Shown: one piece after another, positions 6,101-12,969 of the stretch
How the letters are laid out: each line of letters begins with the position of its first letter
Numbering within the stretch: position 1 is the stretch's first letter
NCBI GenBank assembly: GCA_963801165.1
Contig: CAWDDT010000010.1
Coordinates: forward strand, 96,001-160,000
Length of the DNA: 64,000 nucleotides
Direction: 5' to 3'
Source of the DNA: an uncultured bacterium
Lineage (GTDB): Bacteria; Actinomycetota; Acidimicrobiia; Spongiisociales; UBA5794
Program-made: the position numbers and the translations under genes
The notes under the pieces: generated by a model
What the model saw: only the letters and a program-made list of their open reading frames with translations
Told to the model about the DNA's origin: nothing
Databases searched by the model: none

Positions 6101-6164
6101 CCCGCAACGGCCGGAGCGGATAGCCGATGATCGCCTTCTGTTCTGGAGTCGGGACGAAGTTCAT
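3111..6164 (-). CDS. UvrD-like SF1 helicase with C-terminal RecB-type nuclease (AdnB-like)
   Basis: [38 protein letters not shown]...IVDFKS, four Cys (CPQR...[10 protein letters not shown]); ATGA overlap with upstream gene. Confidence 0.88.
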
Positions 6165-9151
6165 GCGAAACCCGGTCCGCCCTCGGCCCACGCCGGGCAT
6201 ACCTGGCGAAGCGAGCAACGTTCACAGTGGGTGCCCGGTTTCGGTGTCCAATCCTCGGATCGGATGCCTTCGGCGGCCAGCTGCAGGCGAGCTTCGACAT
6301 GGCTGAGAAGACCCATGTCGAACTTGCGTGTGGTGACACCCCTGGTCCCGTGCATCGGGTACCAGAGCTCGGCCCCGACTACCGGCCCGTGTGCATCGAG
6401 ATCCGAGTCGCGGTCGACGGCAAGCGCATAGAAGCCAAGCTGCAGGGATTCAGCGGCTTCTGCGATCTGAACGGGGTGCTTGCTGGTCTTGTAGTCGACA
6501 ATGGTCAAACCACCTGGTCCGCTGTCGATTCGGTCGATGCGACCGGTCCATTTGATGCCACCGACCTCGGCCTCGACGGTTCGCTCGAGGTCGAGGGCGC
6601 GACGCTTCCTGGTGGGCCAATTCTCGTAGAGACGGATCAACCCGTCGTGACCACGGTTCAGCCAGGAGTCGGCAAACGGACGGCCCCCGTAGTCGTTGGG
6701 GTCGAATCGCTCCCCGAGCTCGGTGAGAGCCGCGTCCAGCGTGCTGTGCTCTCGCCCCTGGTCGCGGGCGGTGCGTTCCACCGTCTCGAGAACATCGTGG
6801 ATCAGCGTACCGAAGTCAGCGTGGAGCGACGTGTCGGATCCGACTTTGAGACGGCGCTCGAGGGCATACCGTCGCGGGCAGTCCTCATACATTTGTGCCT
6901 GCGAGGGGGAGAGCACCACCTGGTCACCAATCAGGCCGTCGTCGGGTCCCCGGTCCCGGACACCGTTGAAGTCGGCAGCGGGGCGCAGCCCCCACTCCTC
7001 GCCGATGGCGAGGACTCGAAGGGCGGCGAGACGTGCCGGTCGCGGCGCAGCCACATCGACCAGGCAGCGACGCAGCGCGGCTTCGGCTTCGTGAGCCGTG
7101 ACAGGGAGCCGGCCACCCTCCGCGGGATGCGTTGGAGGGCACACGCTCACCCGGCCGGGTGGTCGGCCCGCATCGACCCCCACCCGGGCGGCGATTGTGG
7201 TGAAGAAGCGGCTGGGGCGGCCGGGTGCCTCGTCGAGACCACGTGCGGTGGCGGTCCAGATGACCCGGCGTCGGGCGCGGGTCATCGCCGTGTACGCCAA
7301 CCGGCTCTCCTCGCGAAGCCGGAAAGTCCGGTACTCCGCGGTATCAGCGGGGACGTGGGGCAACAGGTGTCGTACGCCGAGCAGCGAGTCCCGCGTACGG
7401 AGATCGGGAAATACCCCGTCAACTGCGTCGGCGATGAAGACCACGTCGAGTTCCAGCCCTTTTGCCTGGTGAAGAGTGGTCAGCGTGAGATAGTCGCCCT
7501 CCGGTCGGCGGTAGCTGAGCAGCGGCTGGGCTTCGAAATCCTCGCTCTCGGCGAGGCGGCGGTACTCGAGAAGTGTTCCCTGTGGATTGCGCTCCTCCCA
7601 GCGAACGAGCACCTGGGCCAACGATCGCCACGCCGCTCGCTCCTCAGCAGCCGCGGGGTCGGCAATGAGGCTCTCGACGCCGGGCAGAGTGCTCCACAGT
7701 TGCCACAGTCCATCGACGGCGGGAACGCTGGTGGCCCACCCGGGATCCTCGAGGAGGTCGGCGAGCCGGGACCACCCGGGGAGGGTCTCCCGGATCGCAC
7801 GAGACCAGGATGCGCTGACCCTGGCCTCCCGCTCCAGCGATCGAAACGCGCCGATTGTCAACCCGACTCGCGATCCGAGAAGCACCCGCCGCATTGCATT
7901 CTCCGCGGCGGTCGGCCCGTCGCATCCCGAAGCCGCGACGGCGAGGTCGAGTAGGAAGCGGACTGCGGGCTGGTCGGTGAGCCGGCTACCCGGTAGCTCG
8001 TGCGGTATGTGGCGGCGCTCCAACGCCCGGGAGAGGTCGGCAAGGAGCCGGCGTTTGCTGCGGACGAACACGCCGATTCGGCGGTAGGGGATACCTTCTG
8101 TGAGGTGGAGCCGTTGCGCCTCGGCCGATATCCATTCCGCTTCCTCGACTTGCTGGTCGAACCGGTACGCATCCACGACTCCCCGACCGGGGGCCGGGTG
8201 CACGGTTCCGGTCGCACCGGGAAGATCGCCGGTGGTCACTGCCACTGCCGCATCGAGGATGGCGGCCGGTGTGCGAAACGAGGTCGTCAGCAAGAAGCGG
8301 ATGGCGGGGGTTTCGGACGAGCCGAAATCATCCTCGAACGCGGCGACGTTCTCGACCGTGGCGCCCCGAAAGCTGTATATCGATTGGTAGGGGTCGGCGG
8401 CGGCGAGCGTGTGGCTGCCACCGCGTTGGAGTGCCTGCAGCAGCCGGACCTGGGCCGTCGTCGTGTCCTGGTATTCGTCAACCAGCACGTAGGTCTCAGT
8501 GTGCGCCGCAGCGAGGACGCCCTCTTCGAGCAGCGCGACGGCAGTGGAGATGAGAGTGCCGTAGTCGATGCGCCCCAGCTTGCGCAGCGCCCGTTGGTAT
8601 GTCGCGAGAAACTCCGGCAAACCGCGCCAATCGGCGCGCTCGAAACGGGCGATGGACTCGGGTGTGTTCATCTGCTCGGCTGAGCGCAAAATGAAGTCGG
8701 TCACCTCACCGGCAAAAGTCCGTGTGCCGAGAAGCTCGGCGAAGGCAGGGGACCAGGCGCGGCGGTCATCTTCTACCAGCAGTTCGTGCATCAGCGACAC
8801 CTGCTCGGGACCGGTGAGTATCTGCGGGTTCTCGCCCCATCCAGCGGCGACGCTGTTGATCTCGACCAGACGCGCAGCATAGGAGTGGAAGGTGGCGACA
8901 TCGAGAGCGCCGAGCGTATGGGTGATGCTCTGTCGAATCCGGCTGCGAACCTCGGCAACGCCGCGTCGGGAGAACCCGAGGACGGTGATCTGCTCAGGTC
9001 GTACCCCGGCAGCCGTGAGCAGATGGGTGGCCCGGCGGACCAGAAACTCCGTCTTTCCGGTCCCCGGACCGCCGACTACGAGCTGTGGGCCTGCGATGTG
9101 GGCCACGGCCTCCGGCCAGCCGTCGGGGTCGATCGAGATGGGGTCGTTCAC
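6161..9151 (-). CDS. UvrD-like helicase with C-terminal RecB-type nuclease (AdnA-like)
   Basis: GGPGTGKT, VDEYQD, TLHQAKGLE, YTAMTRAR, RIDRID...VDYKT, CPRR...CERCSLRQVC; GTGA overlap at 9148-9151. Confidence 0.87.
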   Translation of the reverse strand: MNDPISIDPDGWPEAVAHIAGPQLVVGGPGTGKTEFLVRRATHLLTAAGVRPEQITVLGFSRRGVAEVRSRIRQSITHTLGALDVATFHSYAARLVEINSVAAGWGENPQILTGPEQVSLMHELLVEDDRRAWSPAFAELLGTRTFAGEVTDFILRSAEQMNTPESIARFERADWRGLPEFLATYQRALRKLGRIDYGTLISTAVALLEEGVLAAAHTETYVLVDEYQDTTTAQVRLLQALQRGGSHTLAAADPYQSIYSFRGATVENVAAFEDDFGSSETPAIRFLLTTSFRTPAAILDAAVAVTTGDLPGATGTVHPAPGRGVVDAYRFDQQVEEAEWISAEAQRLHLTEGIPYRRIGVFVRSKRRLLADLSRALERRHIPHELPGSRLTDQPAVRFLLDLAVAASGCDGPTAAENAMRRVLLGSRVGLTIGAFRSLEREARVSASWSRAIRETLPGWSRLADLLEDPGWATSVPAVDGLWQLWSTLPGVESLIADPAAAEERAAWRSLAQVLVRWEERNPQGTLLEYRRLAESEDFEAQPLLSYRRPEGDYLTLTTLHQAKGLELDVVFIADAVDGVFPDLRTRDSLLGVRHLLPHVPADTAEYRTFRLREESRLAYTAMTRARRRVIWTATARGLDEAPGRPSRFFTTIAARVGVDAGRPPGRVSVCPPTHPAEGGRLPVTAHEAEAALRRCLVDVAAPRPARLAALRVLAIGEEWGLRPAADFNGVRDRGPDDGLIGDQVVLSPSQAQMYEDCPRRYALERRLKVGSDTSLHADFGTLIHDVLETVERTARDQGREHSTLDAALTELGERFDPNDYGGRPFADSWLNRGHDGLIRLYENWPTRKRRALDLERTVEAEVGGIKWTGRIDRIDSGPGGLTIVDYKTSKHPVQIAEAAESLQLGFYALAVDRDSDLDAHGPVVGAELWYPMHGTRGVTTRKFDMGLLSHVEARLQLAAEGIRSEDWTPKPGTHCERCSLRQVCPAWAEGGPGFA

Positions 9152-9966
9152 GACGTCGCGGGTTGGCCCGGATCGGTTGCAAAAGCCGGGCACCGATCCT
9201 GGAACTGGCACCAGTTGCACAGCTTGCCCGGTCTTGCGGGGAAGTCGTTGTTGATGATGGCCCGGTTTATGGCCGCCCAGAGTGCCTCGAGCTTGCGCCG
9301 GGTTGCGTCGAGTTGCTGGTCGCTAACCGGGATCTCGTACACCGTGGGCCGGCCCAGGTACATGAGCCGCAAACGTACCGGGGTGCGCCCGGTGCGCGCC
9401 CTGATGAGCAGCGCGTAGATCTTCAATGCGAAGAAGGCGGGAATGGCGTACCGCTCGGGTGGGGCCGAGCCGGTCTTGTAATCGGTGATGACCAGACCGT
9501 CCGGTTCCTCTTCCATCCGATCGAGAATGCCGCGGATGGTTATCTCGCCGAGCTCCTCGGTCATGTCGAGCTCCCGATCGACCGGATCAAACGAGGTTGG
9601 ATCCTCGATCACGAAGTAGTTGGCGAGCACCGACAGACTATCGATGCCCCAGGCTCGCTCCTCCTCGACGGTGTCGAAGAGACCGGGGAACTCCTCGTCG
9701 CGCAGCTCGACCCATGCCTTGCGAAACAGCTCGTAGAGCGTTTCCGGGGTGCGGTTCTTCGGGGCGAGATCGAACAGCCGCTGCAGGGCGAGGTGAGCGG
9801 TCGTACCCCGGGCCTGATACACGGTGGGGGGCACCTCGATCTTGTCGATTGCCTTGTACTTGAACAGAAGCGGGCACACTTTGAAGTCCCCGGCCCGCGA
9901 GGGAGACAGCGTTTCGAGGATCGGAGCCGCAATTGTCTGTGTCGTGGTGTGATTTGTAGCTGTCAT
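9148..9966 (-). CDS. Stand-alone RecB-family PD-(D/E)XK nuclease with 4-Cys (Fe-S) motif
   Basis: LSPSRAGDFKVCPLLF, GILDRME, ITDYKTG, LKIYAL, LCNWCQFQDRC; start at MTATNH, preceded by TATAGT. Confidence 0.85.
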   Translation of the reverse strand: MTATNHTTTQTIAAPILETLSPSRAGDFKVCPLLFKYKAIDKIEVPPTVYQARGTTAHLALQRLFDLAPKNRTPETLYELFRKAWVELRDEEFPGLFDTVEEERAWGIDSLSVLANYFVIEDPTSFDPVDRELDMTEELGEITIRGILDRMEEEPDGLVITDYKTGSAPPERYAIPAFFALKIYALLIRARTGRTPVRLRLMYLGRPTVYEIPVSDQQLDATRRKLEALWAAINRAIINNDFPARPGKLCNWCQFQDRCPAFATDPGQPATS

Positions 9967-10044
9967 CGCCTTTCGACTATACGCCGCGCCACCGACAAGA
10001 ACCACACGCGTGTAGTTATCGCGTGTAGTTATCGACAGGGAGAT

Positions 10045-10119
10045 CGCGAAATATTTGCCGAATTCGCGAAAACGAACCAGCCATCCAACTTGACTGCACA
10101 AAGCGGTCGGGCGTACGTT
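10045..10119 (+). promoter_or_regulatory. SigA-type promoter with upstream CGCGAAA direct repeats (drives RNA-1)
   Basis: CGCGAAA at 10045 and 10065; TTGACT 10090-10095; 18-nt spacer; TACGTT 10114-10119. Confidence 0.7.
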
Positions 10120-10124
10120 ATCGG

Positions 10125-10876
10125 TCCTCGAGGCTCCGACCATGGCGGAGTGGTTCTCGGAAGGAAAGGGATTGGGAAACCGGCCCTCTCCGGCACCGGG
10201 AACAACGGGATGGATACATCCCGAAGGGCACCCGGTCCCCCGGCGGAACTCCGGTTCCGGCGGAACCGAGGGTCCACGTCCGAGAGGCTTCGGCCTCGAA
10301 GACAACAGGTTGAACGGGTTTCGGCCCGGGAAACCGACAGGGCTCCGGCTCTGTCACCCGCCCTGCTACGGCAGAGCAAACCGGGAGGGCTTCGGCCCGA
10401 CCAGAAGGCCTCGGAGGGTGAAATCCTCCGAAGCAACGGGCGGCCTTCGGGCCACCCGGTCCTCCGAGTGAGGCGCACCGCCGCTGCGGTTGGGACTACG
10501 GTCTCACCACAGCGGGCAGACGTAACACGAAGGTGGACGAAACGCCGAGGCAATCGGCGGGACGAGGGTTTCCTCGGTGAGGGCAACGCCCGATCCGAGA
10601 AGGCTGCCGGGTCAAACCGAGCGGCAAGCCCTCCGACCAAGGGTTGCAGCGGTTTCCCCTGGTGGGAGCTTCGGCGCCCGCTAGCGGAGACGGCACGGCC
10701 GGCTGTACCGGGCTTCGGTCCGGTGACGACCGGGCGGGCCGGTGGGTGTCCTAACGGCCATCTACAAAGCAGCGGCTGGAAGCGGCCCGACTCCTCACGG
10801 AGAAGGTGCCCGACCAGAAGCGAGGATCCCCGAGAGGGTGGCGACTCCGGTCAAAACTCCCTCGGGGTTTCCTTTT
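10125..10876 (+). ncRNA. Putative large (~750 nt) highly structured non-coding RNA, family unassigned (RNA-1)
   Basis: No credible CDS. About 11 UNCG-capped hairpins plus GAAA/GATA/GGCAA loops and a GGGTGAAATCC T-loop-like hairpin. Long-range helices 10226-10232/10805-10811 and 10462-10473/10793-10802. Promoter upstream; hairpin plus U-tract downstream. Confidence 0.8.
10823..10876 (+). terminator. 3' terminal hairpin / intrinsic terminator of RNA-1
   Basis: CCCCGAGAGGGT...ACTCCCTCGGGG stem followed by TTTCCTTTT. Confidence 0.7.
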
Positions 10877-11000
10877 GTCACGAGGTTTGTCACGAGGTTT
10901 GTCACGAGGTTTGTCACGAGGTTTGTCACGAGGTTTGTCGCGAGGTTTGTCGCGAGGTTGTCGCGAGGGTTGCCGCGGAGGTTGCCGCGGAGGGTTGTCG
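10874..11000. repeat. 12-bp tandem repeat TTTGTCACGAGG, 5 perfect copies then progressively degenerate
   Basis: Perfect units at 10874, 10886, 10898, 10910 and 10922; variants TTTGTCGCGAGG x2, then TTGCCGCGGAGG-type units. Confidence 0.9.
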
Positions 11001-11022
11001 AGAGGGCTCGAAGCCTGTCGTT

Positions 11023-11679
11023 TCAGGTACACCCATCGAGCGGCTGGAGCAGCGTCACGGTGTCGTTGTCGTCCGACCCGCTCAGCAGACCCCGGAAGCC
11101 GGCAGAGACGGCCCGAAACGACCACACATCGAGTACCGCGTCTCCCTCGACCACCATATCGGCGCCGAATGCACTGCGGAGCGCGGCGACGGTCGTTCCG
11201 AGCCCAACGCCCTGTTCGGTCGTCAGGTCTAGACCACGCGGATCGATGCCGCCCTCGTTCTCGGAGAAGTCGTAACCGTAGGTATACGTGTAGAAGTATC
11301 CACCGAGGTCGGGAGCGCCGTCGTCGATGAAGATGGTCACGAGGCTACCCCAGCCGATGGCCCGCATCGTCGAGCCGGGGCACGAGCCATAGGCGTTCGG
11401 CTCCGACGGTATCCAGCCGCTATCCAGATCGGGGCCACCGACGAGTGCGGCGATGTCGTCCACGACCGTGTCAGGAGCGAGCCCGAAGCTCACCTCGCCG
11501 AGACCGTCGGGGGAGAGGGCTAGCTTCACCAGCGGGGCCGGGACCGTCGTTGTCGAATCCTGCGCGGCTCCGCATCCAGTGAGAAGGACGCACATGAGCA
11601 TCGCCGCGACTCGACGTCCCGCCGCCGGTCGAGCCCGGGCTGCCCGGGTGCACCCGACGATCCGCTTCTCTCGAGCCAA
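11023..11679 (-). CDS. Putative lipoprotein of unknown function
   Basis: TTG start 6 nt after GGAGG; basic N-region, hydrophobic stretch, lipobox LTG-C, Thr-rich linker. Confidence 0.75.
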   Translation of the reverse strand: MAREKRIVGCTRAARARPAAGRRVAAMLMCVLLTGCGAAQDSTTTVPAPLVKLALSPDGLGEVSFGLAPDTVVDDIAALVGGPDLDSGWIPSEPNAYGSCPGSTMRAIGWGSLVTIFIDDGAPDLGGYFYTYTYGYDFSENEGGIDPRGLDLTTEQGVGLGTTVAALRSAFGADMVVEGDAVLDVWSFRAVSAGFRGLLSGSDDNDTVTLLQPLDGCT

Positions 11680-11765
11680 CTAGTACCTCCGGCGAGGACA
11701 CTACACCGGGACCCGGAAGGTCCCCTGCGCACGGGCTCTGGGCCGGATCGGGACCCCGGGGCACA

Positions 11766-11804
11766 TGAGTTCGGTGAGTGAATTCGGCGAGTGAGTTCGG
11801 CGAG
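11766..11804. repeat. 13-bp tandem repeat TGAGTTCGGCGAG x3 (imperfect)
   Basis: Units at 11766, 11779 and 11792. Confidence 0.7.
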
Positions 11805-11870
11805 TGATAAGGAGGATTCGGTCGACTATTCGCGCCTGATCCGGGTATCGGAGCGGCGCCACGATCGGGT

Positions 11871-11945
11871 CGCGAAACAAAGCGGGAAAGCGCGAAATCA
11901 AGACACGGTTTTGGCTTGACCGCGGCATGGGCTACGCACTAACTT
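11871..11945 (+). promoter_or_regulatory. SigA-type promoter with upstream CGCGAAA direct repeats (drives RNA-2)
   Basis: CGCGAAA at 11871 and 11891; TTGACC 11916-11921; 18-nt spacer; TAACTT 11940-11945. Confidence 0.7.
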
Positions 11946-11951
11946 GGCTTT

Positions 11952-12220
11952 AGTCGATGAGGCGGGAAACCGCAGCAGAGACTCCAGGCCTCGCAAGGGG
12001 TTCTGGGATCTGGACGAGTCACCGGGCCGCGAGGTCGGGTGGCGACACCGCAAGGAAAGTCCGGGGACGAGCCCCAGTGGTTCGGCCTCACGGGCTGCGA
12101 AGGATCGCTGATCGGGACTTCGGTCCTGAGAGGCATCTCGGTTGAGCCGCAAGGTTCCGACCGAGAAGAGAGCCCCGAGAGGGTCGACGCTTCGGCGAGA
12201 ACTTTCTCGGGGTTTCTCGC
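11952..12220 (+). ncRNA. Putative ~270-nt structured non-coding RNA, family unassigned (RNA-2)
   Basis: Series of hairpins: GCGG-GAAA-CCGC, C-GCAA-G, GGCC-GCGA-GGTC, CC-GCAA-GG, TCGGGAC-TTCG-GTCCTGA, GAGCC-GCAA-GGTTC, CGC-TTCG-GCG; own promoter; 3' hairpin near-identical to RNA-1. Confidence 0.72.
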
Positions 12221-12336
12221 GTCCGTAGTGGGCCGGACGACCAAAAACGCCGGCATCTGGCTCAAGGAATCGAGCGATCCGAAAATCTGCAAGCGGTGAT
12301 TGCGCGCGGCCAGGTCGAACGTCGTATCATTGCGCC

Positions 12337-12969
12337 ATGGCTTTTCCAGAGAACATCCTCACGGAAGATGAGACGATCGTCAGTCAGTTTCGACCGCACT
12401 GGAGGATGCTCGCCATCCCTGTGCTGTGGTTTATCGCCGGCATTGTTGCCATAGTCCTCGTGTCGGTCTATTCCTGGCTCGACGACTATTCGATCATCCG
12501 CTGGATCCTGATCGCAGCGCTAGTGCTTGCTTTGTTCCCGCTGGTGGTAAGCCCCGTTCTCCGGTGGGTGTTCACGTCCTACGTTCTCACCAGCGAGCGG
12601 CTGATGACGAGGACCGGGATGATCGCTCGCAGCGGCATCGAGTTGCCGCTGGCCAGCATCAACGACGTGCGCTTTCACCAGACGGTTCTCGAGCGTGTGC
12701 TGAAGTCGGGCGACCTCGTAATCGAGTCGGCAGGTGAGAGCGGGCAGAGCAGGTTCACCGATATCCCGCGCCCTGAGGAGTTCCAATCGCTGCTGTACCG
12801 GACCCGGGAACAGCAGCAACACAACAGCGCCGTAGAGCAGTCGGCAAAGGCCGCCGAAGTGACCCGCGACCCAACCGAGGAGTTGGAGAGAGCTGCCCGA
12901 CTACGCGATGACGGGGTGCTCTCTGAGGAGGAGTTCCAAGCCATGAAGCAGCGCATCCTCGGGACGTAG
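12337..12969 (+). CDS. Membrane protein with bacterial PH domain and C-terminal SHOCT domain
   Basis: RPHWRML, two TM helices, YVLTSERL...GDLVIESAGE, C-terminal LRDDGVLSEEEFQAMKQRIL. Confidence 0.85.
   Translation: MAFPENILTEDETIVSQFRPHWRMLAIPVLWFIAGIVAIVLVSVYSWLDDYSIIRWILIAALVLALFPLVVSPVLRWVFTSYVLTSERLMTRTGMIARSGIELPLASINDVRFHQTVLERVLKSGDLVIESAGESGQSRFTDIPRPEEFQSLLYRTREQQQHNSAVEQSAKAAEVTRDPTEELERAARLRDDGVLSEEEFQAMKQRILGT

Follow-up and report, generated by a model that had tools for sequence, protein, structure and literature searches.

Does the hairpin-rich stretch at positions 11952 to 12220 of the DNA analysed here encode an RNA of its own, and if so, what kind of RNA is it? The DNA is a stretch of 64,000 nucleotides (nt), hereafter the window, from an uncultured bacterium (GTDB lineage Actinomycetota; Acidimicrobiia; Spongiisociales; UBA5794; contig CAWDDT010000010.1 of assembly GCA_963801165.1, positions 96,001 to 160,000). 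A first-pass annotation, made from the letters alone, had proposed an independent small RNA at this place (RNA-2), downstream of a longer structured RNA (RNA-1). Members of the Acidimicrobiia occur commonly in soil, sediment, seawater and wastewater, and to our knowledge almost nothing is known about their RNA biology. A full-text literature search (subscription journals fell outside it) found no small RNA reported from Acidimicrobiia except raiA. We conclude that RNA-2 is very probably an independent structured small RNA of a new family. The proposal of an independent RNA was borne out by a conserved promoter and upstream boxes of its own, by conservation that stops after a terminator-like stem, and by contigs from RNA libraries. 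The family is previously undescribed and, in the genomes sampled, is confined to one order of Acidimicrobiia. The case of RNA-2 also shows that raw sequence is enough to discover RNAs of this kind.

Promoter, upstream boxes and extent of the RNA-2 gene

The promoter TTGACC-N18-TAACTT named in the first-pass annotation is present on the + strand at 11916-11945, with the -35 box TTGACC at 11916-11921, an 18-nt spacer and the -10 box TAACTT at 11940-11945. The spacing of CTTGACC and TAnnTT is fixed across 15 aligned sequences of the same genus. A generic sigma-70 scan called no site at this promoter, because TAACTT agrees with TATAAT at only three of six positions; the promoter call therefore rests on conservation. 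Upstream on the + strand lies a double box, CGCGAAA-N13-CGCGAAA (11871-11897), which was recognized from the onset of conservation and from a pattern count in the genome. Conservation in the 15 sequences sets in abruptly at the first CGCGAAA box, and the two boxes precede the predicted start by approximately 75 and 55 nt. The double box occurs at five sites in the genome of this bacterium (none for the reversed-pattern control), two of which belong to RNA-1 and RNA-2. It is probably a regulator-binding site or a UP-like promoter element, and the RNA-2 promoter looks strong and regulated. The predicted transcript (11952-12220, + strand) is about 265 to 270 nt long; its start was placed from the -10 box and its end from the terminal stem followed by UUUCUC. 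A generic terminator scan did not call the RNA-2 terminator, which has a tail of four T rather than five.

The third double box (L155, 1500-1527, on contig 5) is found approximately 330 nt before an open reading frame (ORF) read as dnaA, with TGTGGATAG- and TGTGGATGG-like boxes in between. The fourth (L157) precedes an ORF with a weak DUF4349 match and is followed by TTGCGA-N17-TAGGGT, and the fifth (L156) lies approximately 300 nt upstream of a TGA stop. Short tandem repeats of 13 nt precede both of the double boxes in the RNA locus by 40 to 60 nt, at 10007-10034 (2.2 copies) for RNA-1 and at 11766-11807 (3.2 copies) for RNA-2.

Secondary structure and covariation

The structure of RNA-2 exceeds chance. 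The + strand folds with -146.9 kcal/mol (z = -5.08) and none of 200 shuffled sequences folded as well, versus a z of -0.89 and 36 of 200 shuffles as good for the - strand. About eight consecutive hairpins, capped mostly by GNRA or UUCG loops, had been described; eight are seen in the minimum-energy fold and in the RNAalifold consensus, and their loops are, in order, GAAA, GCAA, GCGA, GCAA, CCAGU, UUCG, GCAA and UUCG. The two hairpins quoted as examples were also found in place, TCTCGGTTGAGCC-GCAA-GGTTCCGACCGAGA at 12136-12166 and TCGGGAC-TTCG-GTCCTGA near 12112-12129.

All elements of the fold are on the + strand. The 5' hairpins P1 (GAAA loop) and P2 (GCAA loop) occupy 11952-12006 and are supported by fold and covariation, with two pairs changed on both sides in each of their helices (helices 2 and 4). 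A junction helix of five pairs (12007-12011 with 12102-12106) encloses P3 (GCGA loop), P4 (GCAA loop) and P5 (CCAGU loop), so that helices 5 to 8 fall within 12007-12106; the P4-P5 stretch is nearly invariant in the genus. P6 (UUCG loop) and P7 (GCAA loop) follow at 12107-12166 and show five and four pairs changed on both sides (helices 9 and 10). The 3' module (12168-12220) is made up of a purine linker, CCCCGAGAGGG at 12173-12183, an inner UUCG hairpin, CUCGGGG at 12206-12212 and UUUCUC. The U-tail pairs with the purine linker that precedes the terminal stem (helix 11). The module looks like an intrinsic terminator and is at the same time the signature of the family.

The RNAalifold consensus of 15 homologs contains 88 pairs, and 97.3% of the cells pair. 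Both-side changes were counted at 20 of the 88 pairs compared to 10.2 (standard deviation 1.9) in column shuffles, none of 500 of which reached 20; since the structure was derived from the same 15 sequences, the count is somewhat biased in its favour. Sliding the partners against each other gives 2 to 11 pairs changed on both sides versus 20 in the real structure. Two G-U pairs in the module (columns 293-316 and 294-315) work only on the + strand, and the constraint therefore acts on the + strand RNA.

Conservation within the genus

A full-length RNA-2 homolog was found in all 14 same-genus genomes searched, with 74 to 81% identity. In the 15-sequence alignment the conserved block runs from the first CGCGAAA box to just past the GGGGUUUYUC tail. 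In one genus member an additional hairpin of 21 nt separates P1 from P2; the other insertions and deletions among the homologs are of 1 to 2 nt. A small protein encoded at this place was considered and rejected: no frame is kept, and the stop pattern varies between sequences in all three frames. Together with the 1- to 2-nt insertions and deletions, this indicates that RNA-2 is non-coding. A repeat or mobile element was likewise rejected, the RNA-2 body being single-copy and the 3' module occurring only twice in the genome.

Presence in RNA libraries

Parts of 10050-12350 are present in 24 salt-marsh metatranscriptome runs, four of which were examined at the contig level. Three runs gave RNA-2 contigs (11964-12181, 11966-12172 and 11963-12180), with no differing letters; these runs carry three study codes and are all salt-marsh metatranscriptomes of 2020, possibly from one campaign. 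Lack of expression had been named in the first-pass annotation as an outcome that would speak against a small RNA; contigs from RNA libraries are present over 11963-12181. RNA-1 is covered by contigs of all four runs (10134-10836 combined). Run X10 has no RNA-2 contig and run X2 has a separate contig over 12358-12500. In the runs examined no contig covers 9900-10133, 10837-11962 or 12182-12357; these uncovered parts carry no evidential weight.

The RNA-2 contigs begin 11 to 14 nt past the predicted start and end at the foot of the stable 3' stem. Such ends could be what the library chemistry gives from a full-length RNA, and processing is not judgeable from them. Contigs of both RNAs end in adapter letters in the same orientation in every case. 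This orientation fits + strand RNA if the libraries are of the usual stranded type, which makes it a hint only. The RNA-2 contig depths of 265 to 686 are unusable for ranking genes.

A family with a common 3' module

The 3' module was scanned for in one genome per species and was found in at least 117 stretches. By a hand count of their taxon labels, 83 read Acidimicrobiia, -ales or -aceae, 18 only Actinomycetota, Actinobacteria or Actinomycetes, 5 "bacterium" and 2 other taxa. Nine are labelled Acidobacteriota, and several of these have the same flanking genes. Among the 117 matches listed, 44 have both a PD-(D/E)XK nuclease gene and a bPH_2 gene as neighbours, 22 the bPH_2 gene only, 25 the nuclease gene only and 26 neither; some of the last group may be chance matches or lie at contig ends. 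The module copies are usually in tandem, 245 to 2815 nt apart, between the nuclease gene and the bPH_2 gene.

A covariance model of the module (R1) was built from 149 copies (alignment A2), namely the two of the window and 147 of the 160 distinct copies found at loci with a flanking gene. Left out were nine copies of the same genus, two near-duplicates and two on the opposite strand. R1 has a match in 35 of the 36 genomes sampled from the same order; among 114 genomes from the other orders of the class four gave a match, each of them weak. Most genomes have two strong matches and some have one or three. RNA-2 scores 79.4 bits and RNA-1 63.1 bits, both being in the training set. Over the 149 copies the inner hairpin of the module covaries, while the strands of the outer stem are invariant across the order. 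R1 is thus available as a ready model for annotating genomes of this Acidimicrobiia order.

A double box of the form CGCGA[AT]A-N10-18-CGCGA[AT]A is found upstream of 135 of the 169 modules with enough sequence, among the matches listed. Forty of the 135 were inspected, and mostly show a TTGAC-like and a TAnnTT-like box followed by a GNRA-loop hairpin. The distances from box to module imply RNAs of about 140 to 770 nt. A family member is thus built of boxes about 21 bp apart, a promoter, a 5' GNRA hairpin, a fast-evolving body of hairpins with stable tetraloop caps and a near-invariant 3' module with a long stem in which even the U-tail is paired. RNA-2 has all of these features (double CGCGAAA box, TTGAC-N17/18-TAnnTT, 5' GNRA hairpin and the CCCCGAGAGGG...CUCGGGGUUU module).

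A third, short family member of about 170 nt (an estimate) is found in three other genomes of the order (L163, L164 and L165), at loci that have neither the nuclease nor the bPH_2 gene. This RNA begins CCGGAUCGGGGG-(C/U/G)-RAC-CCCG and carries the same 3' module. A CGCGAAA box is present upstream of it in L164 and L165, and none was seen in the 420 nt inspected in L163.

RNA-1 and its relation to RNA-2

RNA-1 (10126-10872, + strand) is the longer sister and has the same boxes, promoter type and module (10828-10867). Its CGCGAAA boxes are 21 nt apart (10045-10071), its promoter reads TTGACT-N18-TACGTT and an early GAAA hairpin follows. The 3' ends of the two RNAs are 76% identical over approximately 60 nt and share the module CCCCGAGAGGG-hairpin-CUCGGGGUUU. 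A search of the 4.55 Mb genome for CCCCGAGAGGG-N14-30-YYCYCGGGG returned exactly two sites, one at the end of each RNA, and the reversed control gave no match. The module is therefore not the genome's general terminator.

The suggestion that RNA-2 is a short paralog of RNA-1 holds in part. Double box, TTGAC-N18-TAnnTT promoter, 5' GNRA hairpin and 3' module are shared, but the RNA-2 core model misses RNA-1 (expectation value, E, of about 0.5), and the two bodies appear to be unrelated at the level tested. The other suggestion, that RNA-2 is a partner of RNA-1, found no support in a crude test: the whole-length duplex scored -251.7 versus -243.7 (standard deviation 7.2) with shuffled RNA-2, which did at least as well in 29 of 200 cases.

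Two runs contain a second contig that matches 10190-10227 and 10381-10403, with 124 other letters in place of the 153 in between. This contig probably comes from a relative whose RNA-1 differs in its middle hairpin. At position 10224 all four runs have G instead of A. Immediately 3' of the RNA-1 terminator, at 10874-11005, a 12-nt unit (TTTGTCACGAGG / TTTGTCGCGAGG) stands in 11 tandem copies. Related loci have different short repeats with TCGCGA or CGCGAC at the same place (e.g., L031, minus strand). These repeats may be degenerate CGCGA-box arrays.

Comparison with known RNA families

The comparison with Rfam proposed in the first-pass annotation gave no assignment, as the Rfam 15 gathering scan of the 64 kb window returned no match. 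A permissive scan of 8800-12600 (E up to 10) gave six matches with a best E of 2.2, which were treated as chance; the sole match inside RNA-2 was to a mammalian long non-coding RNA family (E 8.6). From the lack of an Rfam 15 match it follows that RNA-2 is not a 6S, Ms1, raiA, RNase P or signal recognition particle RNA.

6S RNA resembles RNA-2 in being a separate small RNA gene with its own promoter, and is stable and abundant. It forms a rod with a closing 5'/3' stem and a central bubble, whereas the ends of RNA-2 lie in separate hairpins. No 6S RNA (RF00013) was found in the window, in 8800-12600 or in the genome, with a control that was positive in only 5 of 14 known genomes; a 6S RNA elsewhere in the genome may thus have been missed.

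Ms1 is an actinobacterial RNA of approximately 300 nt, abundant and with its own promoter, whose sequence is not conserved between distant lineages; in mycobacteria and Streptomyces it binds the RNA polymerase core (PMC9130861). It is like RNA-2 in its host phylum, its size and its separate gene with its own promoter. The first-pass annotation saw no sequence resemblance to Ms1, and we agree; fold and gene neighbourhood differ as well. The fold of Ms1, a rod like that of 6S RNA with a central bubble plus two end hairpins, contrasts with RNA-2, which has its hairpins in a row and a junction enclosing three of them. Ms1 is flanked by HAD-IB hydrolase and oxidoreductase genes (PMC9130861), whereas RNA-2 lies between PD-(D/E)XK nuclease and bPH_2 genes. 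No Ms1 match was obtained in the Rfam 15 scans of the window, to which the Ms1 search was limited; Rfam contains Ms1 candidates according to the same paper (PMC9130861).

CoRP of Corynebacterium is 516 nt long, is cut into pieces of 318 and 198 nt and binds RNA polymerase core and holoenzyme (PMC11077062). Like the RNAs described here it is a lineage-restricted, abundant, long structured actinobacterial RNA in two pieces. It differs, in a comparison made by description only, in being a single tRNA-flanked transcript that is cut in two, whereas RNA-1 and RNA-2 have promoters of their own (PMC11077062). The raiA motif RNA (RF03072) is a structured RNA of approximately 200 nt with unknown function that has been reported in Acidimicrobiia (PMC10861870). 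It has no match in the window or the genome, the control on named genomes being positive nowhere. In the class sample its model matched 5 of 151 genomes, which belong to two families of other orders, and none of the 36 from the order of RNA-2.

Two further candidates were considered and rejected. RNase P RNA (RF00010), which came to attention through a GAAAGUCCGG-like stretch at 12055-12064, has no match in the window, and the RNase P RNA of this genome was found on another contig (267.9 bits). The other candidate was a CsrB/RsmZ-type sponge. CsrB, RsmY and RsmZ occur as several paralogs of varied length with a variable number of hairpins, an upstream activating box and a factor-independent terminator, and the RNA-2 family is like them in its paralogs, variable hairpin bodies, length range, upstream box and terminator. 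This candidate was rejected because GGA is not enriched and csrA adjoins an ORF read as fliW. RNA-2 contains 7 GGA versus 11.1 expected (493 of 500 shuffles reach or exceed this number) and RNA-1 contains 21 versus 25.1 expected. The csrA gene of this genome (92.9 bits; L161, contig 11, 1067-1728) comes directly after the fliW ORF and near an ORF read as a flagellar hook-associated protein, both read from their translations. It would be part of a CsrA-FliW flagellar pair of the protein-antagonist type, here in an actinobacterium. Searches of the genome, which is 98% complete, detected neither Hfq nor TROVE/Ro60.

Possible functions of RNA-2

The gene, structure, conservation, presence in RNA libraries and family of RNA-2 are shown above, and a function can be proposed. 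The reading that we favour, with moderate confidence, is that of an independently transcribed, stable non-coding RNA of approximately 270 nt, belonging to a new family, that binds a protein in trans. That RNA-2 may bind protein is, judged as a separate claim, almost evenly balanced. According to this proposal a factor reading the CGCGAAA boxes would set RNA-2 transcription. The ends locked in hairpins and the paired U-tail would shield the RNA from end-dependent nucleases, and the stable RNA would then bind or sequester its protein in trans. The invariant 3' helix could serve as a recognition handle as well as a terminator, since the sequence-specific constraint on it suggests protein recognition or a tertiary contact. 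RNA polymerase would be the leading candidate partner, being the one that 6S, Ms1 and CoRP bind elsewhere. The promoter box suggests a regulator that may be active in front of dnaA as well.

Several points weigh against this proposal. The binding of a protein in trans is inferred from the anatomy, and the body of RNA-2 has no closing stem or central bubble, unlike 6S and Ms1. The relatives are without exception metagenome-assembled genomes and, being kin, do not count as independent samples. Contigs cannot reveal the ends, strand or level of an RNA. The invariance of CCCCGAGAGGG and CUCGGGG in A2 was partly imposed by the pattern used for collecting the copies; R1 and BLAST, which are free of this demand, recover the same module copies. 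An RNA-2 core model (R2), run with strict filters on 120 other genomes from the order, matched none of them. With the filters off, R2 gave moderate matches just 5' of the module in three other genera (E of 3.5e-7, 4e-4 and 1.4e-3). The RNA-2 body therefore evolves fast while both ends are held. Across the order, conservation is thus largely concentrated in the promoter and the 3' module, and it could reflect signals for expression and termination alone. The downstream gene also counts here: among the matches listed, 63 of 66 loci have their nearest module in the same orientation as the bPH_2 gene, so that read-through into that gene may have an effect in cis.

A bolder and rather unlikely extension is that RNA-1 and RNA-2 stand for an unrecognised class of modular, very abundant RNAs that act as a global regulator throughout the order. 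A dedicated DNA-binding factor would sit on the phased boxes and drive synthesis of the RNAs, and the 3' helix would capture a core cellular protein, most likely RNA polymerase, perhaps with the 5' GNRA loop docked on that helix; the body would serve as a scaffold that resists nucleases and is free to evolve. If this were true with RNA polymerase as the protein, the RNAs would add a third solution to those of 6S and Ms1/CoRP, without structural relation to either.

The sharper form of the favoured explanation, that RNA-1 and RNA-2 are the order's functional counterpart of 6S, Ms1 or CoRP and buffer RNA polymerase, is unlikely in our estimate, though the family is a candidate for the missing 6S/Ms1-type regulator of the lineage. 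RNA polymerase is the most attractive partner because no 6S RNA was detected and other actinobacteria use lineage-specific RNAs. According to PMC9130861 and PMC11077062 the actinobacterial RNAs that bind RNA polymerase are lineage-restricted, abundant and diverse in size (Ms1 ~300 nt, CoRP 516 nt). The lack of any Rfam match in the window and the strong, regulated look of the promoter agree with such a role. The anatomy does not, as RNA-2 has neither the rod nor the central bubble and ends in separate hairpins; the neighbourhood resembles neither the gene pair beside Ms1 nor the tRNA genes beside CoRP, as these are described in the two papers, and the missing 6S RNA counts for less in view of the control given above.

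That RNA-2 is instead a cis-acting leader or attenuator of the downstream bPH_2/SHOCT gene, with regulated read-through from the RNA-2 promoter past the 3' stem, is improbable. The gene (12337-12969, + strand) lies outside RNA-2 and encodes a protein with bPH_2 (9.9e-17) and SHOCT (3e-08) matches in Pfam. Besides the shared orientation mentioned above, the gap between module and gene speaks for a leader, as it is below 135 nt in 34 of the 63 co-oriented loci listed and 116 nt in the window. The first-pass annotation had argued that RNA-2 is unlikely to be a 5' untranslated region as the gene has its own TATCAT 6 nt before the ATG, and the argument stands. TATCAT is present at 12325-12330 with the ATG at 12337, and TAT(C/G)AT is kept 6 nt before the ATG in 14 of 17 sequences at the level of the genus (variant or unclear in L012, L016 and L019), so that the gene has a conserved -10 box and does not appear to depend on a promoter at the leader. 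No Shine-Dalgarno sequence was read upstream of this ATG, and the in-frame reading before it is SYHC.M or AYDW.M in most same-genus sequences. This fits a leaderless bPH_2 mRNA with its own promoter.

Other loci also argue against a leader. RNA-1 ends in the same module yet faces a convergent ORF, the module copies at L163 to L165 have no co-oriented bPH_2 gene downstream, so RNAs of the same build occur at loci without this gene, and in 3 of the 66 loci listed the RNAs point away from the bPH_2 gene and toward the nuclease gene. The sole candidate for an anti-terminator pairing, the P7 5' strand UCUCGG with CCGAGA of the module, is broken in 3 of 15 sequences, while a compensating change keeps P7 itself intact (at pair 250-272, GC in 11, AU in 3 and GU in 1).

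It is very improbable that RNA-2 is one of the large-structure RNAs whose three-dimensional fold is itself the function, self-assembling or catalytic like raiA, OLE, ROOL and GOLLD. The many GNRA loops, the invariant G-C helix, which could act as a GNRA loop receptor, and the presence in RNA libraries would suit such an RNA, but outside the genus the body shows little conservation, in contrast to the conserved core of ornate RNAs, and RNA-2 matches neither raiA nor another Rfam family. Least probable of all is a base-pairing regulatory small RNA that hits mRNAs via a conserved unpaired stretch, for although conserved single-stranded linkers exist (e.g., GGAUCYGGAAGGG and GAGAAGGAUC), they are purine-rich and resemble ribosome-binding sites rather than their complements, Hfq was not found in the genome, the family bodies differ widely between genera (~140 to 770 nt) and RNA-2 has no special complementarity to RNA-1.

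Neighbouring genes

The neighbours of the two RNAs in the window are, by Pfam, an ORF without a match, the bPH_2/SHOCT gene, a tRNA_edit protein and a PD-(D/E)XK nuclease. The ORF without a match (218 amino acids, 11023-11679, - strand) lies between RNA-1 and RNA-2 and is convergent with RNA-1. Its N-terminus (...LLTGCGAAQ...) looks, in our own reading, like a lipoprotein signal. By tblastn, relatives with 27 to 57% identity are found near modules in 14 other RNA loci. On the other side, at 6161-9966 (- strand) and divergent from RNA-1, are a protein of 1019 amino acids with UvrD-helicase and PD-(D/E)XK domains and a PD-(D/E)XK protein of 272 amino acids. Their ORFs overlap at 9148-9220, and the pair adjoins the RNA locus in many loci of the order.

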